Source: Candidatus Woesebacteria bacterium (lineage in GTDB: Bacteria > Patescibacteriota > Saccharimonadia > Saccharimonadales > EFPC-124). From it: a stretch of 64,000 bases of DNA. Made by a program: the position numbers and the translations under genes. The notes below the pieces were generated by a model, which saw nothing but the letters and a program-made list of their open reading frames with translations, was not told the DNA's origin and made no database searches. Positions 29,885-41,955 of this stretch are shown one piece after another (the stretch's first letter is position 1; every line of letters starts with the position of its first letter). Location of the stretch: assembly GCA_050115675.1 (NCBI GenBank), contig JASFQB010000002.1, positions 132,376-196,375 of the forward strand, in the 5' to 3' direction.

Positions 29885-30004
29885 ATTTCTTGTTTGCTGC
29901 TAGATTTAACGGGTAGTCTTTTTTGTGCTTGCTATACGACAAAGTGCTGAGCTATAATTTATTAAGTAATTCGCTACTTATCGAAAGTTGGTGTTTACTG
30001 TGTC

Positions 30005-30030
30005 TAAGCCTAAGCCTAAGCCTAAGCCTA
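30005..30030. repeat. Hexanucleotide microsatellite (TAAGCC)x4.3
   Basis: taagcctaagcctaagcctaagccta, read directly. Confidence 0.9.
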
Positions 30031-30267
30031 TCCGGAGGCATGGGGCGGGTTGTACTTGCAGTCATAGTGCAGCGCCTGGTCGGTCTAATCCATGGAACGG
30101 ATGCTTGCAGTGTGGTTGTAACTGCAAGGCGACATCTACGGGCAAGTGTCCTTGTTGTGGTGCGTAGACAGGCTCTATTGTTCATGGGAGACGGTTGGCA
30201 GGGTGCAAAGCCTGTGTTACGTCAATCGTCTCCACACCCTACTAGTGTTATCTGCGAGTATAGCGTT
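30031..30267 (+). ncRNA. Candidate structured RNA or structured 3' UTR (GC-rich, hairpin-dense, unassigned)
   Basis: GC-rich untranslated tract in AT-rich surroundings. Perfect 8-bp hairpin cttgcagt/actgcaag (30103-30128), with a second cttgcagt at 30053-30060 that could pair alternatively. 7-bp hairpin ggagacg/cgtctcc (30188-30233). Ends at a terminator. No RNase P, tmRNA or SRP signatures seen. Confidence 0.25.
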
Positions 30268-33282: not shown

Positions 33283-33397
33283 TACTCTAATTTAAGCAAG
33301 AAGTTAATTTAAGCACAAGCACTATTGACTTGGAACTTACTGATAAATAGAATAGTAAGCAGTAGTGGTAAGAAAATAATAAGAAAAGAAGGGCGAA

Positions 33398-34984
33398 ATG
33401 CTATATAAAAAAAGACGTGCAAGTTTCTCGTTAAGCGCGGTAGTAATGTCGAGTGTTTTGTTGGCAATAGCATTGCCAATGCACTCTGCGGGGGCGGCAC
33501 GTTTGGCTAGCTGTGCCGTTCCTTCTATTAATTATGGCACTGCTACTATGCAGCTTAATGTTAGCGAAGCTGGCGATTACAAGATCTGGACTCATATGTA
33601 TGCGCCAGACTCAACTAACGATTCATTTATGCTTGAGCTGGATGGAAACAGTTGTTTTGTGGTTGGTAATGGCGGCGTACAGAATGGTGCCTGGGCTTGG
33701 GTTGGGCACAAGGACGGCAACACTACAAATTATGTCACTGCCACCCTCTCTAGTGGTAACCATACGATAAAACTTATTGGCAGTGAGCCTGGAGTCAAAA
33801 TTGACCGCGTTTTGGCATCTGCCGACCAGAGCTGCGTGCCTACTGGTACGGGCGATAACTGCATGACTGTCTCTGACACTACAAAGCCAGTGGTTAATAT
33901 AACCTCGCCCGAGGATGCCGCTGCCGTTAAGGGCGTTGTGACTATAAAGGCCGATGCTACAGACGATACAGGTATCGCCAAGGTGGAGTTTTACGTACAG
34001 GGCAATTTAGTGAGTACGGTCACTTCTAGTCCATACGAATATAGCTGGGATACTTCTGAACTGGTAAACCAGATATATACTGTAACTACCAAGGCCTACG
34101 ATGCTGAGGGCAATGTCAGCAGTGACTCAATAACTCTTGCCCTAGAAAATGAAACCGCACAAACCGTTAGTGCGGCATCGAACCTGACATCAGTAGCGAC
34201 GTCTACTAACAGTGTTGAGCTAAAATGGGATGGAAGCGCAGAAGCAGTCTCTTACCGAGTAGCTCGCAACGGCGTTGTTATCGTAACGACAAATCAGACT
34301 ACATACACTGACAACACCGCAGTATCCGGCGAAACCTATGAATATACTGTTGTTGCTGTAGGGATTAATGGTGAGGTGTCTGATTCTTCGAGTGTCTCTC
34401 AGGTTACAATGCCAACCCCGCCGGCCGGTGACACTGTAGTGCCAACTACGCCAGCCGATCTGACGGTAGCCGCTCAGGGTACCAATCAGATAAATCTAAG
34501 CTGGACGGCCAGCACCGATGATGTGGGCATTAGCGGCTACGATATCTACCGGAACTCGGACGAGGACAAAACCTTCAGAAAGGTTGCTACAACTACAGAA
34601 ACAAGCTATGGCGACAGCGATGTTTATGACAATACGACATTCACCTATTACATCATTGCCAATGATGCGGCTGGTAATGCTAGCGAACCATCGGCTCAGT
34701 CTGCGGCAACTACCCCGTCGATTCGTAGTAGAAATGTAAGTTCCGTGAGGGGCACAATACACGATTCACATGGTAAGCCTATTGCTGGAGCTAGAGTTGC
34801 GGTATGGGTTGGGTCGCGACGCTACCATGCAACCACCAACTGGCGCGGGCGCTATGTAATCACGAATGTACCTTCTGGTAAGTATGAGGTTTCCTTTGGT
34901 AAGGGCGGTTACGAGCGGACATCGAGCTATGTAAGCTTGAGATCGCATCTAACTCGTTGGCTAGACGCCAAACTAAGGTATTAA
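33398..34984 (+). CDS. Secreted multidomain surface protein (CBM-like, Ig-like, 2x FN3, CarboxypepD_reg-like)
   Basis: Signal peptide. CBM-like GDYKIWTHMYAPDSTNDSFMLELDG. Ig-like TKPVVNITSP...VKGVVTIKADATDDTGIAKVEFYV. Two FN3-like units (LTSVATSTNSVELKWDG; LTVAAQGTNQINLSWTAS). C-terminal GKPIAGARVAVW...TTNWRGRYVITNVPSGKYEV. Confidence 0.65.
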   Translation: MLYKKRRASFSLSAVVMSSVLLAIALPMHSAGAARLASCAVPSINYGTATMQLNVSEAGDYKIWTHMYAPDSTNDSFMLELDGNSCFVVGNGGVQNGAWAWVGHKDGNTTNYVTATLSSGNHTIKLIGSEPGVKIDRVLASADQSCVPTGTGDNCMTVSDTTKPVVNITSPEDAAAVKGVVTIKADATDDTGIAKVEFYVQGNLVSTVTSSPYEYSWDTSELVNQIYTVTTKAYDAEGNVSSDSITLALENETAQTVSAASNLTSVATSTNSVELKWDGSAEAVSYRVARNGVVIVTTNQTTYTDNTAVSGETYEYTVVAVGINGEVSDSSSVSQVTMPTPPAGDTVVPTTPADLTVAAQGTNQINLSWTASTDDVGISGYDIYRNSDEDKTFRKVATTTETSYGDSDVYDNTTFTYYIIANDAAGNASEPSAQSAATTPSIRSRNVSSVRGTIHDSHGKPIAGARVAVWVGSRRYHATTNWRGRYVITNVPSGKYEVSFGKGGYERTSSYVSLRSHLTRWLDAKLRY

Positions 34985-34997
34985 AAAGGCAAGGGAT

Positions 34998-35456
34998 ATG
35001 GAAGACAAAACTATGCAATCACCTCAAATGTCAATGCAAGAGCAGTCTAAGGCCCCAGGTAAAAACCCGTTGCGCGTGGCGCTACTTATCGCGGTTATAA
35101 TAGTCGCGATAGCCAGTATTATTGCACTGGCGTATGTAATAGTGAATTTTAATGGCGTTGAGACAGTGACTGACGAAACCTTTGGCACGGTTACCATAAC
35201 AGACGATGGCACCACCCCTTCTGCTATAACTATAAAGAGCGGTGAAAGTGTGACTTGGATCAATGATAGTTCTAGTTCTCATTCTTTAGAGATAACATCA
35301 CCAAATATTCCTAGGGAGCTTGAAGGGTTTGGTAGTGACGAACCCATTTTGCAGGAAGAGTCCTATAGTTTTATTTTCGAAGCTGCAGGTACTTTTACTT
35401 ATGATGATCCAAGTAACCCTAGCCTTATTCAGGGAACTATAGTTGTTGAAGAGTAA
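34998..35456 (+). CDS. Membrane-anchored cupredoxin-like small protein
   Basis: TM anchor, then ITIKSGESVTWINDSSSSHSLE...GTFTYDDPSNPSLIQGTIVV (cupredoxin-like beta-sandwich pattern). Confidence 0.45.
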   Translation: MEDKTMQSPQMSMQEQSKAPGKNPLRVALLIAVIIVAIASIIALAYVIVNFNGVETVTDETFGTVTITDDGTTPSAITIKSGESVTWINDSSSSHSLEITSPNIPRELEGFGSDEPILQEESYSFIFEAAGTFTYDDPSNPSLIQGTIVVEE

Positions 35457-35727
35457 AAAAATAAAGGAAAGGCTAGGATAGTATCTTGAATATCATAAAA
35501 AGGTTCCTTACCTATATCAGGCACAACCCATTAGAATCAGCTGCAGCTTTGAGTGTATTTGTGGCTCTTGTTTTGGGAGGTATTGTATTTGTTGCTAGTC
35601 GAGCGGCTTCGTTTTATGCCTATGCGGATGCTTCGCAGGCTAGCGTGGCAGATGGTGCAGAAATTGTCTCGGACTCTTCTGCTATTGGCGGCAAAGCAAT
35701 TCAGTTTGCTAGTGCCTCTACTCAGCC
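35445..35727 (+). repeat. 283-bp direct repeat, copy 1 (RBS, TTG start and first 78 codons of the GH46 gene)
   Basis: No mismatch found on reading against 36550-36832 (offset 1105). The copy starts in the last 12 nt of the cupredoxin-like gene (gttgaagagtaa). Confidence 0.9.
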
Positions 35728-36466
35728 AAGTAATAATGATAATGATAATGATACGGTTGATTTGAGTGACCCGGTTAAAAAAGATATTGCAATGCAGTTG
35801 GTATCGAGTGCAGAAAATTCTTCGCTTGATTGGAAAGCACAATATTCATACATTGAAGACATTGGAGACGGACGTGGTTACACAGCAGGCATCGTTGGGT
35901 TCTGTACTGGATGTGGCGACCTGCTCAAGGTTGTAGAAGTATATGACGGTCTTTCTCCGAATAACGTTCTAAGTAAGTACATTCCTGCTCTTAGAAAAAT
36001 TGGTAGCTGGGACGATACGCATGATGGCCTTGATCCTAACTTTACTAAGGACTGGAAAACTGCTGCGAATGATGAGAAGTTTCGGCAAGCACAGGACATA
36101 GAACGCGATCGAGTATATTTTGATCCCGCTGTCGAGCAGGGTAAAGCTGATGGCTTACGCGCTTTAGGCCAGTTTATATATTATGACGCGCTTGTTATGC
36201 ATGGCCCAGGAGATGACTCGGTCAGCTTCGGCGGTATCCGTGCTACAGCCATGAAAAAAGCGAAAACACCAGCACAAGGTGGCGATGAAGCGACTTATCT
36301 TAATGCCTTTTTAGACGCTCGCGCTGCAGCTATGCGTACCGAGGAAGCCCATAGCGACACTACCCGTGTAGATACCGAACAACGTGTCTTTTTAGATGAC
36401 GGCAACTTCAACTTAGACACACCGCTTAGCTGGAAGGTATACGGTGACAGCTATTCTATTAAGTAA
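35486..36466 (+). CDS. GH46 chitosanase (Streptomyces CsnA-like)
   Basis: VSSAENSSLDWKAQYSYIEDIGDGRGYTAGIVGFC, ERDRVYFDPAV, LRALGQFIYYDALVMHGPG and AHSDTTRVDTEQRVFL are collinear with actinobacterial GH46. TTG start. Confidence 0.85.
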   Translation: MNIIKRFLTYIRHNPLESAAALSVFVALVLGGIVFVASRAASFYAYADASQASVADGAEIVSDSSAIGGKAIQFASASTQPSNNDNDNDTVDLSDPVKKDIAMQLVSSAENSSLDWKAQYSYIEDIGDGRGYTAGIVGFCTGCGDLLKVVEVYDGLSPNNVLSKYIPALRKIGSWDDTHDGLDPNFTKDWKTAANDEKFRQAQDIERDRVYFDPAVEQGKADGLRALGQFIYYDALVMHGPGDDSVSFGGIRATAMKKAKTPAQGGDEATYLNAFLDARAAAMRTEEAHSDTTRVDTEQRVFLDDGNFNLDTPLSWKVYGDSYSIK

Positions 36467-36549
36467 GGTACAAAACTAAAATTGACATATATTATTGAAA
36501 GCTGTAGTTTTTATTGGAGTAGGGCTTGCCTCTTTAGCGGTCGGATCGG

Positions 36550-36832
36550 GTTGAAGAGTAAAAAAATAAAGGAAAGGCTAGGATAGTATCTTGAATATCA
36601 TAAAAAGGTTCCTTACCTATATCAGGCACAACCCATTAGAATCAGCTGCAGCTTTGAGTGTATTTGTGGCTCTTGTTTTGGGAGGTATTGTATTTGTTGC
36701 TAGTCGAGCGGCTTCGTTTTATGCCTATGCGGATGCTTCGCAGGCTAGCGTGGCAGATGGTGCAGAAATTGTCTCGGACTCTTCTGCTATTGGCGGCAAA
36801 GCAATTCAGTTTGCTAGTGCCTCTATCCAGCC
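36550..36832 (+). repeat. 283-bp direct repeat, copy 2 (5' module of the GH18 gene)
   Basis: See copy 1. This copy retains the orphan gttgaagagtaa remnant of the cupredoxin gene end. Confidence 0.9.
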
Positions 36833-37778
36833 GGAAACAGGTGGTGGAACTACGGGCACTGCCTATCTTAATCCGTATAGCCTTGGTTTGGCGCCATATA
36901 ACTATATTCCATGGGAAGGCTCACTCACTGATTTTAAGAATGCTTCTGGAGTAAGTAACCAAGTGGCAGCGTTTATTATCAGCTCTGGCGGTTGTACGCC
37001 TGCCTGGGATGGTGATTCATCTTTGGGTCTGAGTAGTTCTAGGTCTAATACCATTGCAAGCGAGATATCTAATGTCAGAAACTCTGGTGGTGATGTTATG
37101 ATATCTTTGGGCGGTGCAAGCGGCAACGAGCTTGCCTACTCGTGCAGCAATGCTTCTCAGTTAAAACAAGCTTACATAAGTATTCTAGACAAATATGGCA
37201 TAGACAAGATCGACTTTGACATCGAGGGATCGAATGCTTCAAAAACTTCTGCAAACGCAACTCGTGCAGAGGTAGTTGCTGCTTTGCAACAAGAGCGAGA
37301 CCTAAAGGTTTGGGTGACATTGGCGGTTGAAACTGACGGCCTGACATCAGAAGGCCTTAGCGTAGTTAAACAAATGCGAGAAAAAGGTGTAGCCTTGTCT
37401 GGTATAAACATCATGGCGATGGACTATGGGACCAACACCAAGGATATGGGTGCTGCAGCGGTATCCGCGGCTAACAGTACATTTAGTCAGCTAAAATCAA
37501 TTTATCCAGAAAGTAGCGACTCAGACATCTGGAAAGCTATAGGCGTAACCGCGATGATAGGCATAAATGATACTGAGCCAGAAGCATTTACGCTTGCAAA
37601 TGCCAAGACACTCAAGGATTACGCGGTGCAAAAAGGCATAGGTATGCTTAGCTACTGGAACGTTGCTCGTGACGTGGCCTGTAGCGGCAATAAAGCAATT
37701 CTGAGCGACTCGTGCAGTGGTGTTACGCAAAGCAAATACGACTTTGCTAATGCACTAAACATCTCATCAATTAATTAG
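36591..37778 (+). CDS. GH18 chitinase-like glycoside hydrolase
   Basis: Catalytic DKIDFDIEG (DxxDxDxE). MISLGGASG, AMDYG and SYWNVARD fit the GH18 TIM-barrel strands. N-terminal 78 aa are identical to the GH46 protein. Confidence 0.8.
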   Translation: MNIIKRFLTYIRHNPLESAAALSVFVALVLGGIVFVASRAASFYAYADASQASVADGAEIVSDSSAIGGKAIQFASASIQPETGGGTTGTAYLNPYSLGLAPYNYIPWEGSLTDFKNASGVSNQVAAFIISSGGCTPAWDGDSSLGLSSSRSNTIASEISNVRNSGGDVMISLGGASGNELAYSCSNASQLKQAYISILDKYGIDKIDFDIEGSNASKTSANATRAEVVAALQQERDLKVWVTLAVETDGLTSEGLSVVKQMREKGVALSGINIMAMDYGTNTKDMGAAAVSAANSTFSQLKSIYPESSDSDIWKAIGVTAMIGINDTEPEAFTLANAKTLKDYAVQKGIGMLSYWNVARDVACSGNKAILSDSCSGVTQSKYDFANALNISSIN

Positions 37779-37803: not shown

Positions 37804-39090
37804 ATGCAGGTTTTTAGAAGATTGGCTTTGTCAACGTTTTTAGCGATAGCTTTTGTGCTAATTAATCCTGGGCAAGTGCTAGCAACCAGCGGTGTAGCTT
37901 GGCCGGTTCAGGGCAATGTGTCGGCAATGTATGAAGAATCATGTAGCTCTTTATACACTCATGATAAAGGTGTAAAAATAGCTAGCAACTTAAAGGGTTT
38001 ACCCGTCTATGCTGCACAGGATGGACTTGTTACTGCTAGCGGGTATAGTTTGTTTTATGGCAGGTATATAATAATCAGCCATGCTAACGGCTGGTCTACA
38101 ATGTACGGAAACTTAGCTGATGTTTATCGTGGGTCTGGTGTAGTCACCCAGGCCGAATTAATCGCAACTACAGGTGTAAAACACCGAGGTAGTACCGAAG
38201 GTCTATTGTATTTTGAAGTCCGCAAAAACGGCATAGCGCAAAATTTTAATAAAGCTATGTCATGCGGGCAAACTATCTATGATCGCACGGCGATAAGATT
38301 TAATTTTGCTGATCTTTATGGTTTTCCTCCAGAATACGAAGAAGTCACAAACGGCGGCGGCACGCGCATAACCGGCAACAACGCATACCTTGACGTTTCG
38401 TCTACCGGCCAGGTTTACGCCTGGAACACTACCAACTTTGGCGGGTCGCCATATTCGTACAATGGCCGATTTGTGGATGCCAAAGTTACGCCAGGTGCTT
38501 TGGGCTACTGGTTGCTAACTTCTGCCGGCCAAGTCTTTACCTATGGTAACGCTCACCATTTTGGCGACGAGCCCCAGGGCTTTAGCGGCGAAATCGTCGC
38601 CATGGCAGCCCAACCAAACAGCCAGGGCTACGCCATGGTCAGCAGTCTTGGCCAAGTTTATACATATAATATGACCAATTACGGCGGATCGCCCACCACT
38701 AATATTGGCAAATTTGTAGACATCGAGCTAACGCCGGACGGCCAAGGTTACTGGCTACTAACTTCTGCGGGCGAAATATTCGCCTACGGCAACGCCCAAA
38801 ACTTTGGCGACCAGCCCAAATATTTCGTAAAAGCCATGGTGGCCATGTCGCTCACACCCAGCGGCAACGGCTATGTAATGGCTAGCAAAACCGGCGAGGT
38901 ATTTGCCTACGGCGACGCGCAAGTAGTGGGCACCCCGCCAACCGGCCACAGCGCCACATCAGAAATAACAGACATAAGCTACAGGCAAGACGGCTATCCA
39001 GGCTACCTAATGATAACCTCGGACGGTAAACATTACGGACATAACTATCCGTTTATCGATGACCCAACTGGGTTTAGTGGATTTTTTTAG
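37804..39090 (+). CDS. Secreted degenerate M23 (LytM-like) domain protein with six C-terminal ~40-aa propeller-like repeats
   Basis: M23 scaffold YTHDKGVKIA...PVYAAQDGLV...IIISHANGWSTMYGNL...GLLYFEVRKNG. The usual HxxxD Asp and the HxH histidines are substituted. Repeats follow GYWLLTSAG(Q/E)(V/I)F(T/A)YGNA..FGD. Confidence 0.65.
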   Translation: MQVFRRLALSTFLAIAFVLINPGQVLATSGVAWPVQGNVSAMYEESCSSLYTHDKGVKIASNLKGLPVYAAQDGLVTASGYSLFYGRYIIISHANGWSTMYGNLADVYRGSGVVTQAELIATTGVKHRGSTEGLLYFEVRKNGIAQNFNKAMSCGQTIYDRTAIRFNFADLYGFPPEYEEVTNGGGTRITGNNAYLDVSSTGQVYAWNTTNFGGSPYSYNGRFVDAKVTPGALGYWLLTSAGQVFTYGNAHHFGDEPQGFSGEIVAMAAQPNSQGYAMVSSLGQVYTYNMTNYGGSPTTNIGKFVDIELTPDGQGYWLLTSAGEIFAYGNAQNFGDQPKYFVKAMVAMSLTPSGNGYVMASKTGEVFAYGDAQVVGTPPTGHSATSEITDISYRQDGYPGYLMITSDGKHYGHNYPFIDDPTGFSGFF

Positions 39091-40142: not shown

Positions 40143-41955
40143 CTAGGTAGTTAGATCGATTGCATGCTCCGTAGAGTCTTTGCCAAGGTTGCCTAAATCC
40201 TCGACATGCCTTAGTTGTTTACTCCATAATTTTGCATAAGTGCCATTTTTTGCTAGCAGTTCGTTGTGTGTGCCATCTTCTACGCACTTGCCTTTTTCTA
40301 TTACTATAATTCTGTCCATTTCTGACAGGGTGCTTAGGCGATGAGCGATTACGATTGCGGTTTTGCCTTTTAATATTCTAGAAAATGAGTCTTTAATAAT
40401 CTGCTCACTTTCGCTGTCTAGCGCGCTAGTAGCCTCGTCTAAAACTATAATTGGCGAGCGTTGCAAAACAGTTCTGGCTATTGCGATACGCTGCTTTTGG
40501 CCACCGCTAAGTTTAACGCCTCGTTCGCCAACAATGCTGTCCAATCCATTAGACAGTTGCAGGGTAAATTTTAGCGCGTGGGCGGCATTTAGCGCATCGC
40601 GCACTTCGTCATCTGTGGCGTCGGGGTTAGATAAAGTGACGTTGTCGCGAACGCTAGCATGAAACAGTAAGGGCTCCTGTGGAACGTAGCCTATTTGCTT
40701 GCGTAAATTAGCTTGTTTAAGGTCTTTAATATTAATTCCATCCAGTAAAATCTTGCCGCTGTCTACGTCGTTAAAGCGCAGCAGTAGTTTAGCTAAGGTG
40801 CTTTTGCCAGCGCCGCTTAAGCCCACGATGCTCACTTTTTGTTCTGCTGGTATATCTAAAGAAAAGTCTGTAAAAACTGGCTTTATATCTCTGTCTTTGT
40901 CGTAGGTGAACGTAATTTTGTCAAAGGTAATATTGCCGTGCGTATTTTTTAGAGTTTTTGGTTCGGCGGGGTCAGTGATGATGTTTTTTCTGTCTAAAAT
41001 TTCGAATGCTGGAATGATTTTATCGATTAGATCGTCGTGTTGGTCTAGGTCATCCGATAATGTATAGATACCCGCAAGAATTGTTGAAGTATATGTTACT
41101 ACCAGAACTGCGGCTGTAATGTCTATAAAGCCACCACTCATGCGACAAACGGTTAGCCACAGTAGTACCAAAAAGAATATTACAGTTATGACTTCGCGCA
41201 AAGCGATAAACTTAGCTTGCATGGTATAGCGTACAGCAAATGCATTTCCTTCTTGCTTTGAACCTTGCTTCACCTGTCTTGAGCACGTAGCTTCTTGAGC
41301 TGTAGCTTTTACCGCCAAAATATTAGATACAAAATCGGCCATGCGACCAGAATTGCGCTTGTAAATCTCACGGGATTTAGAGCGGTACGGTGTAATTGCG
41401 TGCGAGGCCCATATTAGATATATAGCTTGCGTTGTGCTAAGTACTAAGGCCACTAGCCCAAGCCATAAATCAAGATAAAATATTACGCACAGCGGAAAAA
41501 TAATGCTAAGAACTGTGTTTTAGGTAGCGATCGCGCAGAGTTCTCACGAATTGCACGCAGCTGTCTACGTATTGCCTAGTGGCGGTAGTTAAACAGCCAG
41601 ATAAATTCGAATGAAAGTAGTCTAAGTCGGCCGACATCAAATGCGAAAAGTAATTGCCAGTAATGTTGCGGTATGCTTTGTTTTCTCCAAGCATACCAAT
41701 ATACTTAATTAGAGGAGAGAGTGCGCCTAAGGTGAGTGAGAATCCAGCATAGATAAACACTGCTTTTTGGGCTTCGTCAAAATTGTTTTTAGAAAGACCG
41801 GTAATTATCAAGCTAATTGCAATTGGTAGGGCAATTAATTTGCACATACGGGCTGCGATTTGCATAGCAAAAGAAGCCTGCACCTGCCAGGATTGACCGT
41901 AGGTGTGCCACAAATGGCTATATACTAATTTGTATTTATCTGTACCTCGTAGCAC
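40143..41955 (-). pseudogene. ABC exporter (fused TMD-NBD, MsbA-like) with a frameshift at a homopolymer
   Basis: NBD motifs GLSGAGKST (Walker A), LSGGQKQR (signature), IIVLDEATS (Walker B). The TMD is split between ORFs 41506..41955 and 40143..41453. The frame continues (VLSIIFPLCVIFYLDLW) after a shift at the A4 run (T-run 41517-41520 on +). Confidence 0.75.

Follow-up and report, generated by a model that had tools for sequence, protein, structure and literature searches.

The locus and its duplicated leader unit

In a 64,000-nt stretch of contig JASFQB010000002.1 from the genome of an uncultured Candidatus Woesebacteria bacterium of the Patescibacteria (hereafter the window), two adjacent genes on the plus strand encode glycoside hydrolases with unrelated catalytic heads and begin with nearly the same 283 bp, a segment that we call the leader unit. 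The first gene (35486..36466) encodes a 326-aa protein of the chitosanase family GH46, which consists of a leader (residues 1–78), an Asn/Asp linker, and the catalytic head (residues ~104–314). The second gene (36591..37778) encodes a 395-aa protein of the chitinase type, with a head of family GH18 (PF00704). Both are read from TTG start codons, which align with the ATG of orthologs beginning MN. Upstream, on the same strand, lie two further genes that form a cassette with these enzymes: one for a secreted surface-type protein with Big_7, fn3, and CarboxypepD_reg domains (33398..34984; assigned from Pfam and aligned orthologs), and one for a membrane-anchored protein of the cupredoxin fold (34998..35456; PF13473), whose last 12 nt are the left end of the first copy of the leader unit.

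Base-by-base comparison at an offset of 1105 showed that 35445–35720 and 36550–36825 are identical at 276 of 276 consecutive bases. Past base 276 there are two adjacent mismatches (ACT vs. ATC, Thr79 and Ile79) and five matches (CAGCC), after which the similarity ends. Out to 35727/36832, 281 of the 283 bp match, and a repeat search of the window reported this same 283-nt pair at 99%. The first-pass annotation of the window had described 35445–35727 and 36550–36832 as the same sequence; this is exact for 276 bases and falls two bases short over the full 283 bp. Its description of the content, a ribosome-binding region, a TTG start, and 78 codons with unrelated catalytic folds behind them, was borne out by the base comparison, the open reading frames (ORFs), and Pfam.

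Read from 5′ to 3′, the shared unit opens with the four codons that close the cupredoxin-like gene (GTTGAAGAGTAA). A ribosome-binding region of 29 nt comes next, and then, from the TTG start onward, the 78 codons for a putative signal peptide, a beta-hairpin motif of ~35 aa, and the start of the linker. Its left end is located 12 nt inside the cupredoxin-like gene and its right end at the start of the linker, and residues 1–78 of the two proteins are identical. Copy 1 (35445..35727, plus strand) stands in its native context, with the ribosome-binding region at 35457–35485, the TTG at 35486, and codons 1–78 followed by Thr-Gln-Pro. Copy 2 (36550..36832, plus strand) opens with 12 non-coding nt (36550..36561) that repeat the four terminal codons of the cupredoxin-like gene (GTTGAAGAGTAA), followed by the ribosome-binding region at 36562–36590, the TTG at 36591, and codons 1–78, which here run into Ile-Gln-Pro. 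At a related locus, L081, the cupredoxin-like ortholog ends in GTTGAGGAGTAA and a leader-GH18 gene comes directly next; because of this ending, the 12 nt can be recognized as a relic native to the 3′ end of the cupredoxin-like gene, and the earlier view that copy 2 stems from a cupredoxin-adjacent context is upheld. Collinear copies, sharp ends, and an out-of-context relic at copy 2 are the marks of a recent segmental direct-repeat duplication, and the single clean block seen in the window is compatible both with one duplication and with conversion. Even when as many as three mismatches were permitted, a 45-nt probe from the repeat matched at just two places in the window (none expected in shuffles), and no diverged third copy of the leader was found there with tblastn.

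Between the copies lies a unique segment (35728..36549, plus strand) that takes in the linker and the GH46 head and ends with an 83-bp spacer (36467..36549), which separates the GH46 gene from copy 2. Five nucleotides past the end of the repeat, a perfect (ATAATG)x3.5 microsatellite (35733..35753, plus strand) encodes the NNDNDND linker; it is in frame and prone to slippage. The last part of the spacer (CCTCTTTAGC) and the relic (GTTGAAGAG) make up an imperfect inverted repeat and could pair in a 9-bp hairpin over the duplication junction (36530–36558); the overall fold is no better than that of shuffles, and the pairing may be due to chance.

Both heads are of full length. The GH46 head (residues 104–314) matches PF01374 over profile positions 1–210 of 210 with an E-value of 1.4e-97, is 70–81% identical to annotated chitosanases in its catalytic domain, and forms a confidently folded helical domain in the AlphaFold2 (AF2) model. 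At residue 110, ENSSLDWKAQYSYIEDIGDGRGYTAGIVGFCTGCGD matches a PROSITE-type pattern that we take to be the GH46 active-site signature with the catalytic Glu and Asp. The GH18 head scores 43.4 bits with PF00704 (curated cut-off 29.6; E 4.4e-11), its homologs are annotated as chitinase, and DKIDFDIE at residue 205 fits the DxxDxDxE motif, the predicted catalytic site. For the same contig of this metagenome-assembled genome (MAG), the JGI gene call gives the full 326-aa GH46 protein and the NCBI gene call the full 395-aa GH18 protein, with adjacent accessions. Neither the two window proteins nor P0001 had a match when looked up by exact sequence.

It may be asked whether such a tandem pair could have been produced by the assembly, if leader-GH46 and leader-GH18 haplotypes of different strains had been stitched together via the leader in a short-read metagenome assembly. 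The 196,813-nt contig belongs to a MAG with a single assembly on record, and a repeat of 276 bp exceeds typical k-mers, which would suit such an artefact. Nevertheless, the junction between spacer and relic (36549/36550) shares nothing with the context in which the cupredoxin-like gene meets the leader. Since a graph path can re-enter the leader only through a junction existing in the reads, a molecule with the order GH46, spacer, relic, leader must be real. Moreover, both copies run in intact frames into full-length heads, and analogous tandem leader genes are found in independent assemblies of related loci (L094, L097, L144, L150, and L159). A stitched assembly is therefore scarcely credible as the source of the repeat.

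The leader peptide and the signals it carries

The leader has a basic n-region (K5, R6, and R12) and a peak 19-residue Kyte–Doolittle window of 2.63 starting at residue 19. A putative cleavage site lies between residues 40 and 41 (S38-R39-A40/A41). Ala40 is found without exception in 34 GH46-type leaders, and leaders of the GH18 type share the small-x-Ala pattern, with TQA/AG and SRA/SG in relatives vs. SRA/AS in the window. Because of the invariant Ala at −1 and the small residue at −3, a cleavable Sec signal peptide is more likely than the signal anchor proposed in the first annotation, even though the long h-region means that the segment may act as an anchor. At the boundary between the n- and h-regions, a [RK]xP[LF]E motif is nearly invariant in this leader subfamily (residues 14–17 in both leaders, 35525–35536 in the first; PLE here). 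Such a motif, unusual for Sec signals, might point to a dedicated step in sorting or processing.

The ~35 residues behind the predicted cleavage site (FYAYADASQASVADGAEIVSDSSAIGGKAIQF) were modeled by AF2 as a single beta-hairpin (59–62/70–73, pLDDT 62–76), followed by a linker with pLDDT below 50 that is predicted to be disordered. Neither the leader nor the motif belongs to a Pfam family (none at E<=10) or an NCBIfam family. The shared 40-aa segment had been put forward as a possible binding module, and it is conceivable that it forms an autonomous carbohydrate-binding or anchoring domain, in which case the duplication would have moved a binding function from one enzyme to another. A profile of 25 motifs gave weak local matches (E 0.07–0.6) to the N-terminal strands of beta-sandwich binding modules of solved structure, specifically to residues 7–37 of 7ehg_A (MiXBM; E 0.15), 19–38 of 2wz8, and 27–45 of 6yp6 (a CBM35 and NanS-p being among them); the likeness to modules of the carbohydrate-binding module families CBM35 and CBM6 is confined to their first two strands. 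In addition, the GH18 homologs P0057 and P0071, from outside the Patescibacteria, carry a complete CBM35/CBM6 at the equivalent N-terminal position. A complete CBM6/CBM35 beta-sandwich comprises about 120–130 residues, whereas only ~35 residues, modeled as one hairpin, are available here between the predicted cleavage site and the disordered linker; no family profile matches them, and the hhalign probability against CBM35-bearing proteins is only 2–4%. The hairpin motif is too short for a stand-alone binding module, and a binding-domain role for the segment is very improbable.

A related idea concerned the N-domain of the Big_7 protein (33485–33877), a Cys-bracketed region of ~110 aa without a Pfam family. 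Its single-sequence AF2 model has a pLDDT of 56, and the top Foldseek matches are all CBM35/CBM6 (TM ~0.5), so that a CBM6/35-like beta-sandwich can be proposed with low confidence. This N-domain shares one chain with the leader in L113, L130, and L157. The possibility that the hairpin motif supplies the missing first strands of the N-domain, as a split CBM, was largely rejected: the N-domain, bracketed by two conserved Cys, also occurs internally after fn3 without the motif; its low-confidence model aligns over its full length with CBM35/CBM6 structures; and neither a chimeric query nor the N-domain profile rose above noise in comparisons with PDB sequences. A match to P0096 was spurious, this being a eukaryotic MAM-repeat protein.

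The sequence shared upstream of the start codons amounts to 41 nt (12 nt of coding sequence and the 29-nt ribosome-binding region), in which no promoter was called; the description of the unit as promoter-proximal finds no support. The intergenic gaps are 13 nt from the Big_7 gene to the cupredoxin-like gene, 29 nt from there to the GH46 gene, 124 nt from GH46 to GH18, and 25 nt from GH18 to the downstream M23 peptidase gene. In the 83-bp spacer no promoter or terminator was called, and its RNA structure is unremarkable (fold z = +0.69). A TTGACA-17-TAGTTT arrangement at 36482–36510, read by eye, is below the scanner threshold, and an internal GH18 promoter in the spacer is possible but unsupported. 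A promoter-like site (TTGACT-17-TAGAAT, 33325..33353, plus strand) is located upstream of the Big_7 gene and is likely to be the operon promoter; this is a consensus match, and promoter-like sites in the region are not above shuffle expectation. Judged from the sequence, the duplication would equalize translation initiation, export, and the mature N-terminus of the two enzymes, which would make them alike in translation, export, and presentation. Of the proposal that both genes share the same expression signals, the part concerning translation initiation holds, since that region is identical, while transcription is not demonstrably equalized.

A conserved cassette with a head-variable slot

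Relatives of the locus were collected by an exhaustive HMMER search with the leader, by full-length protein searches, and by a metagenome scan with an alignment of the Big_7 protein, which added 80 loci. A word-indexed homolog search with the 89-aa leader gave no match. The exhaustive HMMER search with an 82-aa leader yielded 25 cluster representatives, in which one leader type stands ahead of many different heads. Three GH18 orthologs, at 82, 74, and 74% identity, bear this leader type, and leader-GH46 fusions number ~30 proteins of 316–337 aa.

On the contigs of relatives, the gene order is conserved: the Big_7/fn3/CarboxypepD_reg protein is followed by the cupredoxin-like protein and then by the leader-enzyme. 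The head in this slot is GH18 in L081 and L082 and GH46 in L084–L090. In other loci, the slot behind the cupredoxin-like gene is taken by GH46, GH18, GH6 then GH46, GH114, a beta-helix, and others. In several loci, two to five genes with leaders form an array in which the heads differ, GH16 and GHL15 among them. The order of scaffold, cupredoxin-like gene, and one to several leader enzymes holds down to ~35% scaffold identity. What stays constant in the slot is the leader, and the catalytic head differs from genome to genome. The notion of a module swap leaves this wider pattern out of view. No description of the cassette, the leader motif, or the head-variable slot was found in the literature, with which the lack of a curated family for the leader accords, and the cassette (33398–37778 in the window; loci L081–L170) is apparently undescribed. 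Among the relatives, one protein of 647 aa (P0018, on a 4.6-kb contig) combines leader, GH18, and GH46 in one polypeptide, and in the Saccharimonadales MAGs L026, L030, and L032, GH46 is fused to a stretch of repeated QxW that resembles a ricin-type lectin when read by eye.

A comparison of the flanking genes showed that the leader follows the locus and not the head. Among loci with GH18 in the slot, identity to the window is 66% for the Big_7 protein, 70% for the cupredoxin-like protein, and 80% for the leader at L081, and 61, 58, and 69%, respectively, at L082. For loci with GH46 in the slot, the corresponding values are 47, 47, and 51% (L084), 52, 43, and 56% (L086), and 52, 51, and 43% (L089). 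The gradient of leader identity parallels those of the two upstream proteins, and by its flanking genes the window is nearest to GH18-type loci; the leader of L083 is 73% identical to that of the window. In all three loci in which a GH46 gene stands in tandem with a gene for another head, the leader of the GH46 gene is closer to that of its tandem partner than to any GH46 leader of another locus (100 vs. 56%, 61 vs. 54%, and 70 vs. 62%). Over all loci, the median amino acid identity of leaders is 66% within a locus and 33% between loci (95th percentile 51%), and the heads of tandem pairs within a locus are only 22–47% identical. From the difference between within-locus and between-locus identity, it follows that reuse or homogenization of the leader is general in these cassettes. 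The likeness of the window's leader to GH18-type leaders is no proof that GH18 was the original partner, as leaders track the locus.

The window is the freshest and most extreme case of leader reuse seen. Exact identity between tandem leaders elsewhere does not exceed 117 nt, vs. 276 nt here, in keeping with the recency that was claimed for the copying at the outset. Mosaic tracts of identity occur in the tandem leaders of L097 (24 identical residues and a 38-nt exact tract), L159 (55 nt), and L150 (117 nt).

Origin of the tandem pair and its setting

We favor a history in which a conserved cassette underwent recent in-locus copying of the 283-bp unit, so that it now stands ahead of two unrelated heads, and we assign it a probability of roughly 0.75. 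Orthologous leaders have diverged to 72.6% nucleotide identity between the window and L081, and for this reason the 276/276 identity is better explained by recency than by maintenance. The Thr-Gln that follows the leader in copy 1 is also that of the GH18 ortholog of L081, which suggests that the two mismatches arose in copy 2 after the copying.

Within this explanation, the direction of the event can be proposed with a confidence only slightly better than even. The ancestral slot would have held the order cupredoxin-like gene, leader, GH18, which is the order of the nearest relatives. Between two leader copies, a GH46 head would then have been captured together with its 83-bp 3′ flank by illegitimate or template-switch recombination, with the right junction in the linker, giving a new leader-GH46 fusion whose linker was later filled by the microsatellite. 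The GH18 linker is of the ortholog type, being Ser/Thr/Gly-rich and of equal length. The GH46 linker of the window lacks the Pro/Thr-rich stretch found in all GH46 orthologs and contains the atypical perfect microsatellite instead.

Several observations weigh against this account. No donor of the GH46 head was found, the top identity of the catalytic domain being 78–81%, and neither the window nor the related loci contain a homolog of the 83-bp spacer. In outgroups, as in the window, the first position of the slot is taken by GH46, which would fit a retained ancestral GH46, and the host-like GC of the GH46 head is compatible with long residence or with a related donor. Either GH46 may have been captured or GH18 appended.

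In a rival history, the tandem pair would be old and its leaders homogenized by gene conversion. GH46 would then be ancestral, and a common ancestor of the window, L081, and L082 would have gained a cupredoxin-adjacent leader copy with GH18 as an addition; L081 and L082 would later have lost GH46 via recombination between leader repeats, and repeated conversion would keep the leaders of the window identical. The first position of GH46 in the slot of many outgroups speaks for such a history, and the mosaic tracts in L097, L159, and L150 are the footprint expected of conversion. Repeat-mediated deletion would yield exactly the structure of L081 and L082, where the cupredoxin-like gene, leader, and GH18 are present and GH46 is absent. 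This history demands two independent losses of GH46, however, since the window is nearer to L081 than either is to L082, and it requires perfect homogenization over 276 bp, the non-coding relic included, while orthologous leaders fell to 72.6%. Other tandem pairs are nowhere near 100%, and the linker of the GH46 gene departs from the native Pro/Thr type. We regard an old, converted pair as unlikely, and recent copying as the better account of the window.

Whichever head came first, the 276-bp direct repeat can in principle delete the GH46 unit, restoring the state of the relatives, or amplify it. The deletion potential had been anticipated in the first-pass annotation, and L081 and L082 have precisely the architecture expected of the deletion product.

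The composition of the unique segment with the GH46 head is host-like (GC 45.1%; GC at third codon positions 38.2%), and a recent import of GH46 from high-GC Actinomycetota was rejected on these grounds. With chitosanases of Actinomycetota (Sphaerisporangium and Nonomuraea), the GH46 catalytic domain (35790–36466) shares 78% identity, yet among Patescibacteria identity is only ~50% for the genes that flank it in the cassette. Such a pattern of identities suggests either a past inter-phylum transfer or very strong constraint.

As to the function of the hairpin, it is tempting to speculate that, once the signal peptide is cleaved, the ~35-aa motif serves as a docking tag that tethers any head to a co-encoded surface protein, although we regard this as quite improbable. 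The docking partner may be the membrane-anchored cupredoxin-like beta-sandwich encoded upstream or the scaffold with its CBM35-like, Big_7, and fn3 domains. The strict gene order and the single chains of leader and N-domain in L113, L130, and L157 fit this idea; neither demonstrates docking. If true, ultra-small Patescibacteria would possess a minimal, cellulosome-like system of enzyme display, with a slot at which heads are exchanged by leader recombination. The cupredoxin-like protein itself matches the Cupredoxin_1 and amicyanin profiles below the NCBIfam cut-offs. The ligands of type-1 (blue) copper are a Cys, two His, and a Met. Cys is absent from five of six orthologs (the window protein and the L081–L089 set), and the window protein has a single His. 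A type-1 copper site was rejected for these reasons, and the missing Cys and His ligands indicate a cupredoxin fold without such a site.

The locus can be compared with several known systems. In modular glycoside hydrolases that evolve by domain shuffling, a common signal peptide, CBM, or dockerin module is coupled through flexible linkers to different catalytic domains. They likewise have a constant non-catalytic N-terminus, a disordered linker, and an interchangeable catalytic domain with the junction in the linker. In contrast, the copy described here was made at the DNA level and takes in part of the upstream gene as well as the translation-initiation region, no complete binding domain is involved, and swapping takes place at one slot behind two conserved genes. 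Another parallel is provided by paralogous surface-protein genes whose 5′ segments undergo concerted evolution or gene conversion, such as babA/babB of Helicobacter pylori. There, too, identical 5′ coding segments including the start precede different downstream regions and are reshuffled by recombination. Unlike in that case, the heads in the window are unrelated enzyme folds and not alleles of one adhesin family, they stand in tandem 1.1 kb apart, and the relic left from the upstream gene marks the event as a true duplication and not as conversion alone.

Polymorphic toxin loci (Rhs/CdiA) resemble the cassette in their constant N-terminus, tandem variable C-terminal modules, and exchange via short shared segments. 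They differ from it in that both genes of the window are complete, each with its own ribosome-binding region, start, and leader (neither is an orphan), and in that the heads are glycoside hydrolases; no small immunity-like ORFs are present between GH46 and GH18. By analogy of function, cohesin–dockerin pairing in the cellulosome is also comparable, as many hydrolases there use one small tag and are encoded beside multi-domain surface proteins. No dockerin or cohesin family was detected here, and the putative tag is N-terminal and ~35 aa long.

The mechanism of the duplication is ordinary; the snapshot is unusually clean, and it exposes an undescribed operon that is widespread in Patescibacteria. 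Domain shuffling in secreted enzymes is usually evidenced by old, diverged fusions. At this locus, an intermediate of shuffling is visible base for base, with the leader unit, its translation signals, and a scrap of the upstream gene all duplicated. Comparison with ~50 related loci reveals a head-variable slot (GH46, GH18, GH6, GH114, GH16, GHL15, and beta-helix) with a locus-specific leader, and defines an N-terminal motif and an operon that have both been unannotated. It also offers a concrete mechanism by which genome-reduced, host-dependent bacteria could vary their repertoire of extracellular polysaccharide-degrading enzymes.

Downstream of the cassette, 25 nt behind the GH18 gene, an M23 peptidase gene (37804..39090, plus strand) encodes its own signal peptide and C-terminal repeats, and it possibly belongs to the same transcription unit. 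Its C-terminal half (38527–38939) is built of repeated units of ~41 aa (GQVFxYGNAxxFGD), which correspond to a family of 47-nt direct repeats. On the minus strand at 40143–41955, two consecutive ORFs of 149 and 436 aa resemble the N-terminal membrane part and the remainder of one ABC exporter; the split could reflect a frameshift, a pseudogene, or a sequencing error. Finally, around 30000–30060, runs of SLSLSLSL and RLRLRL in the ORF translations of both strands point to an intergenic simple repeat of the dinucleotide type.

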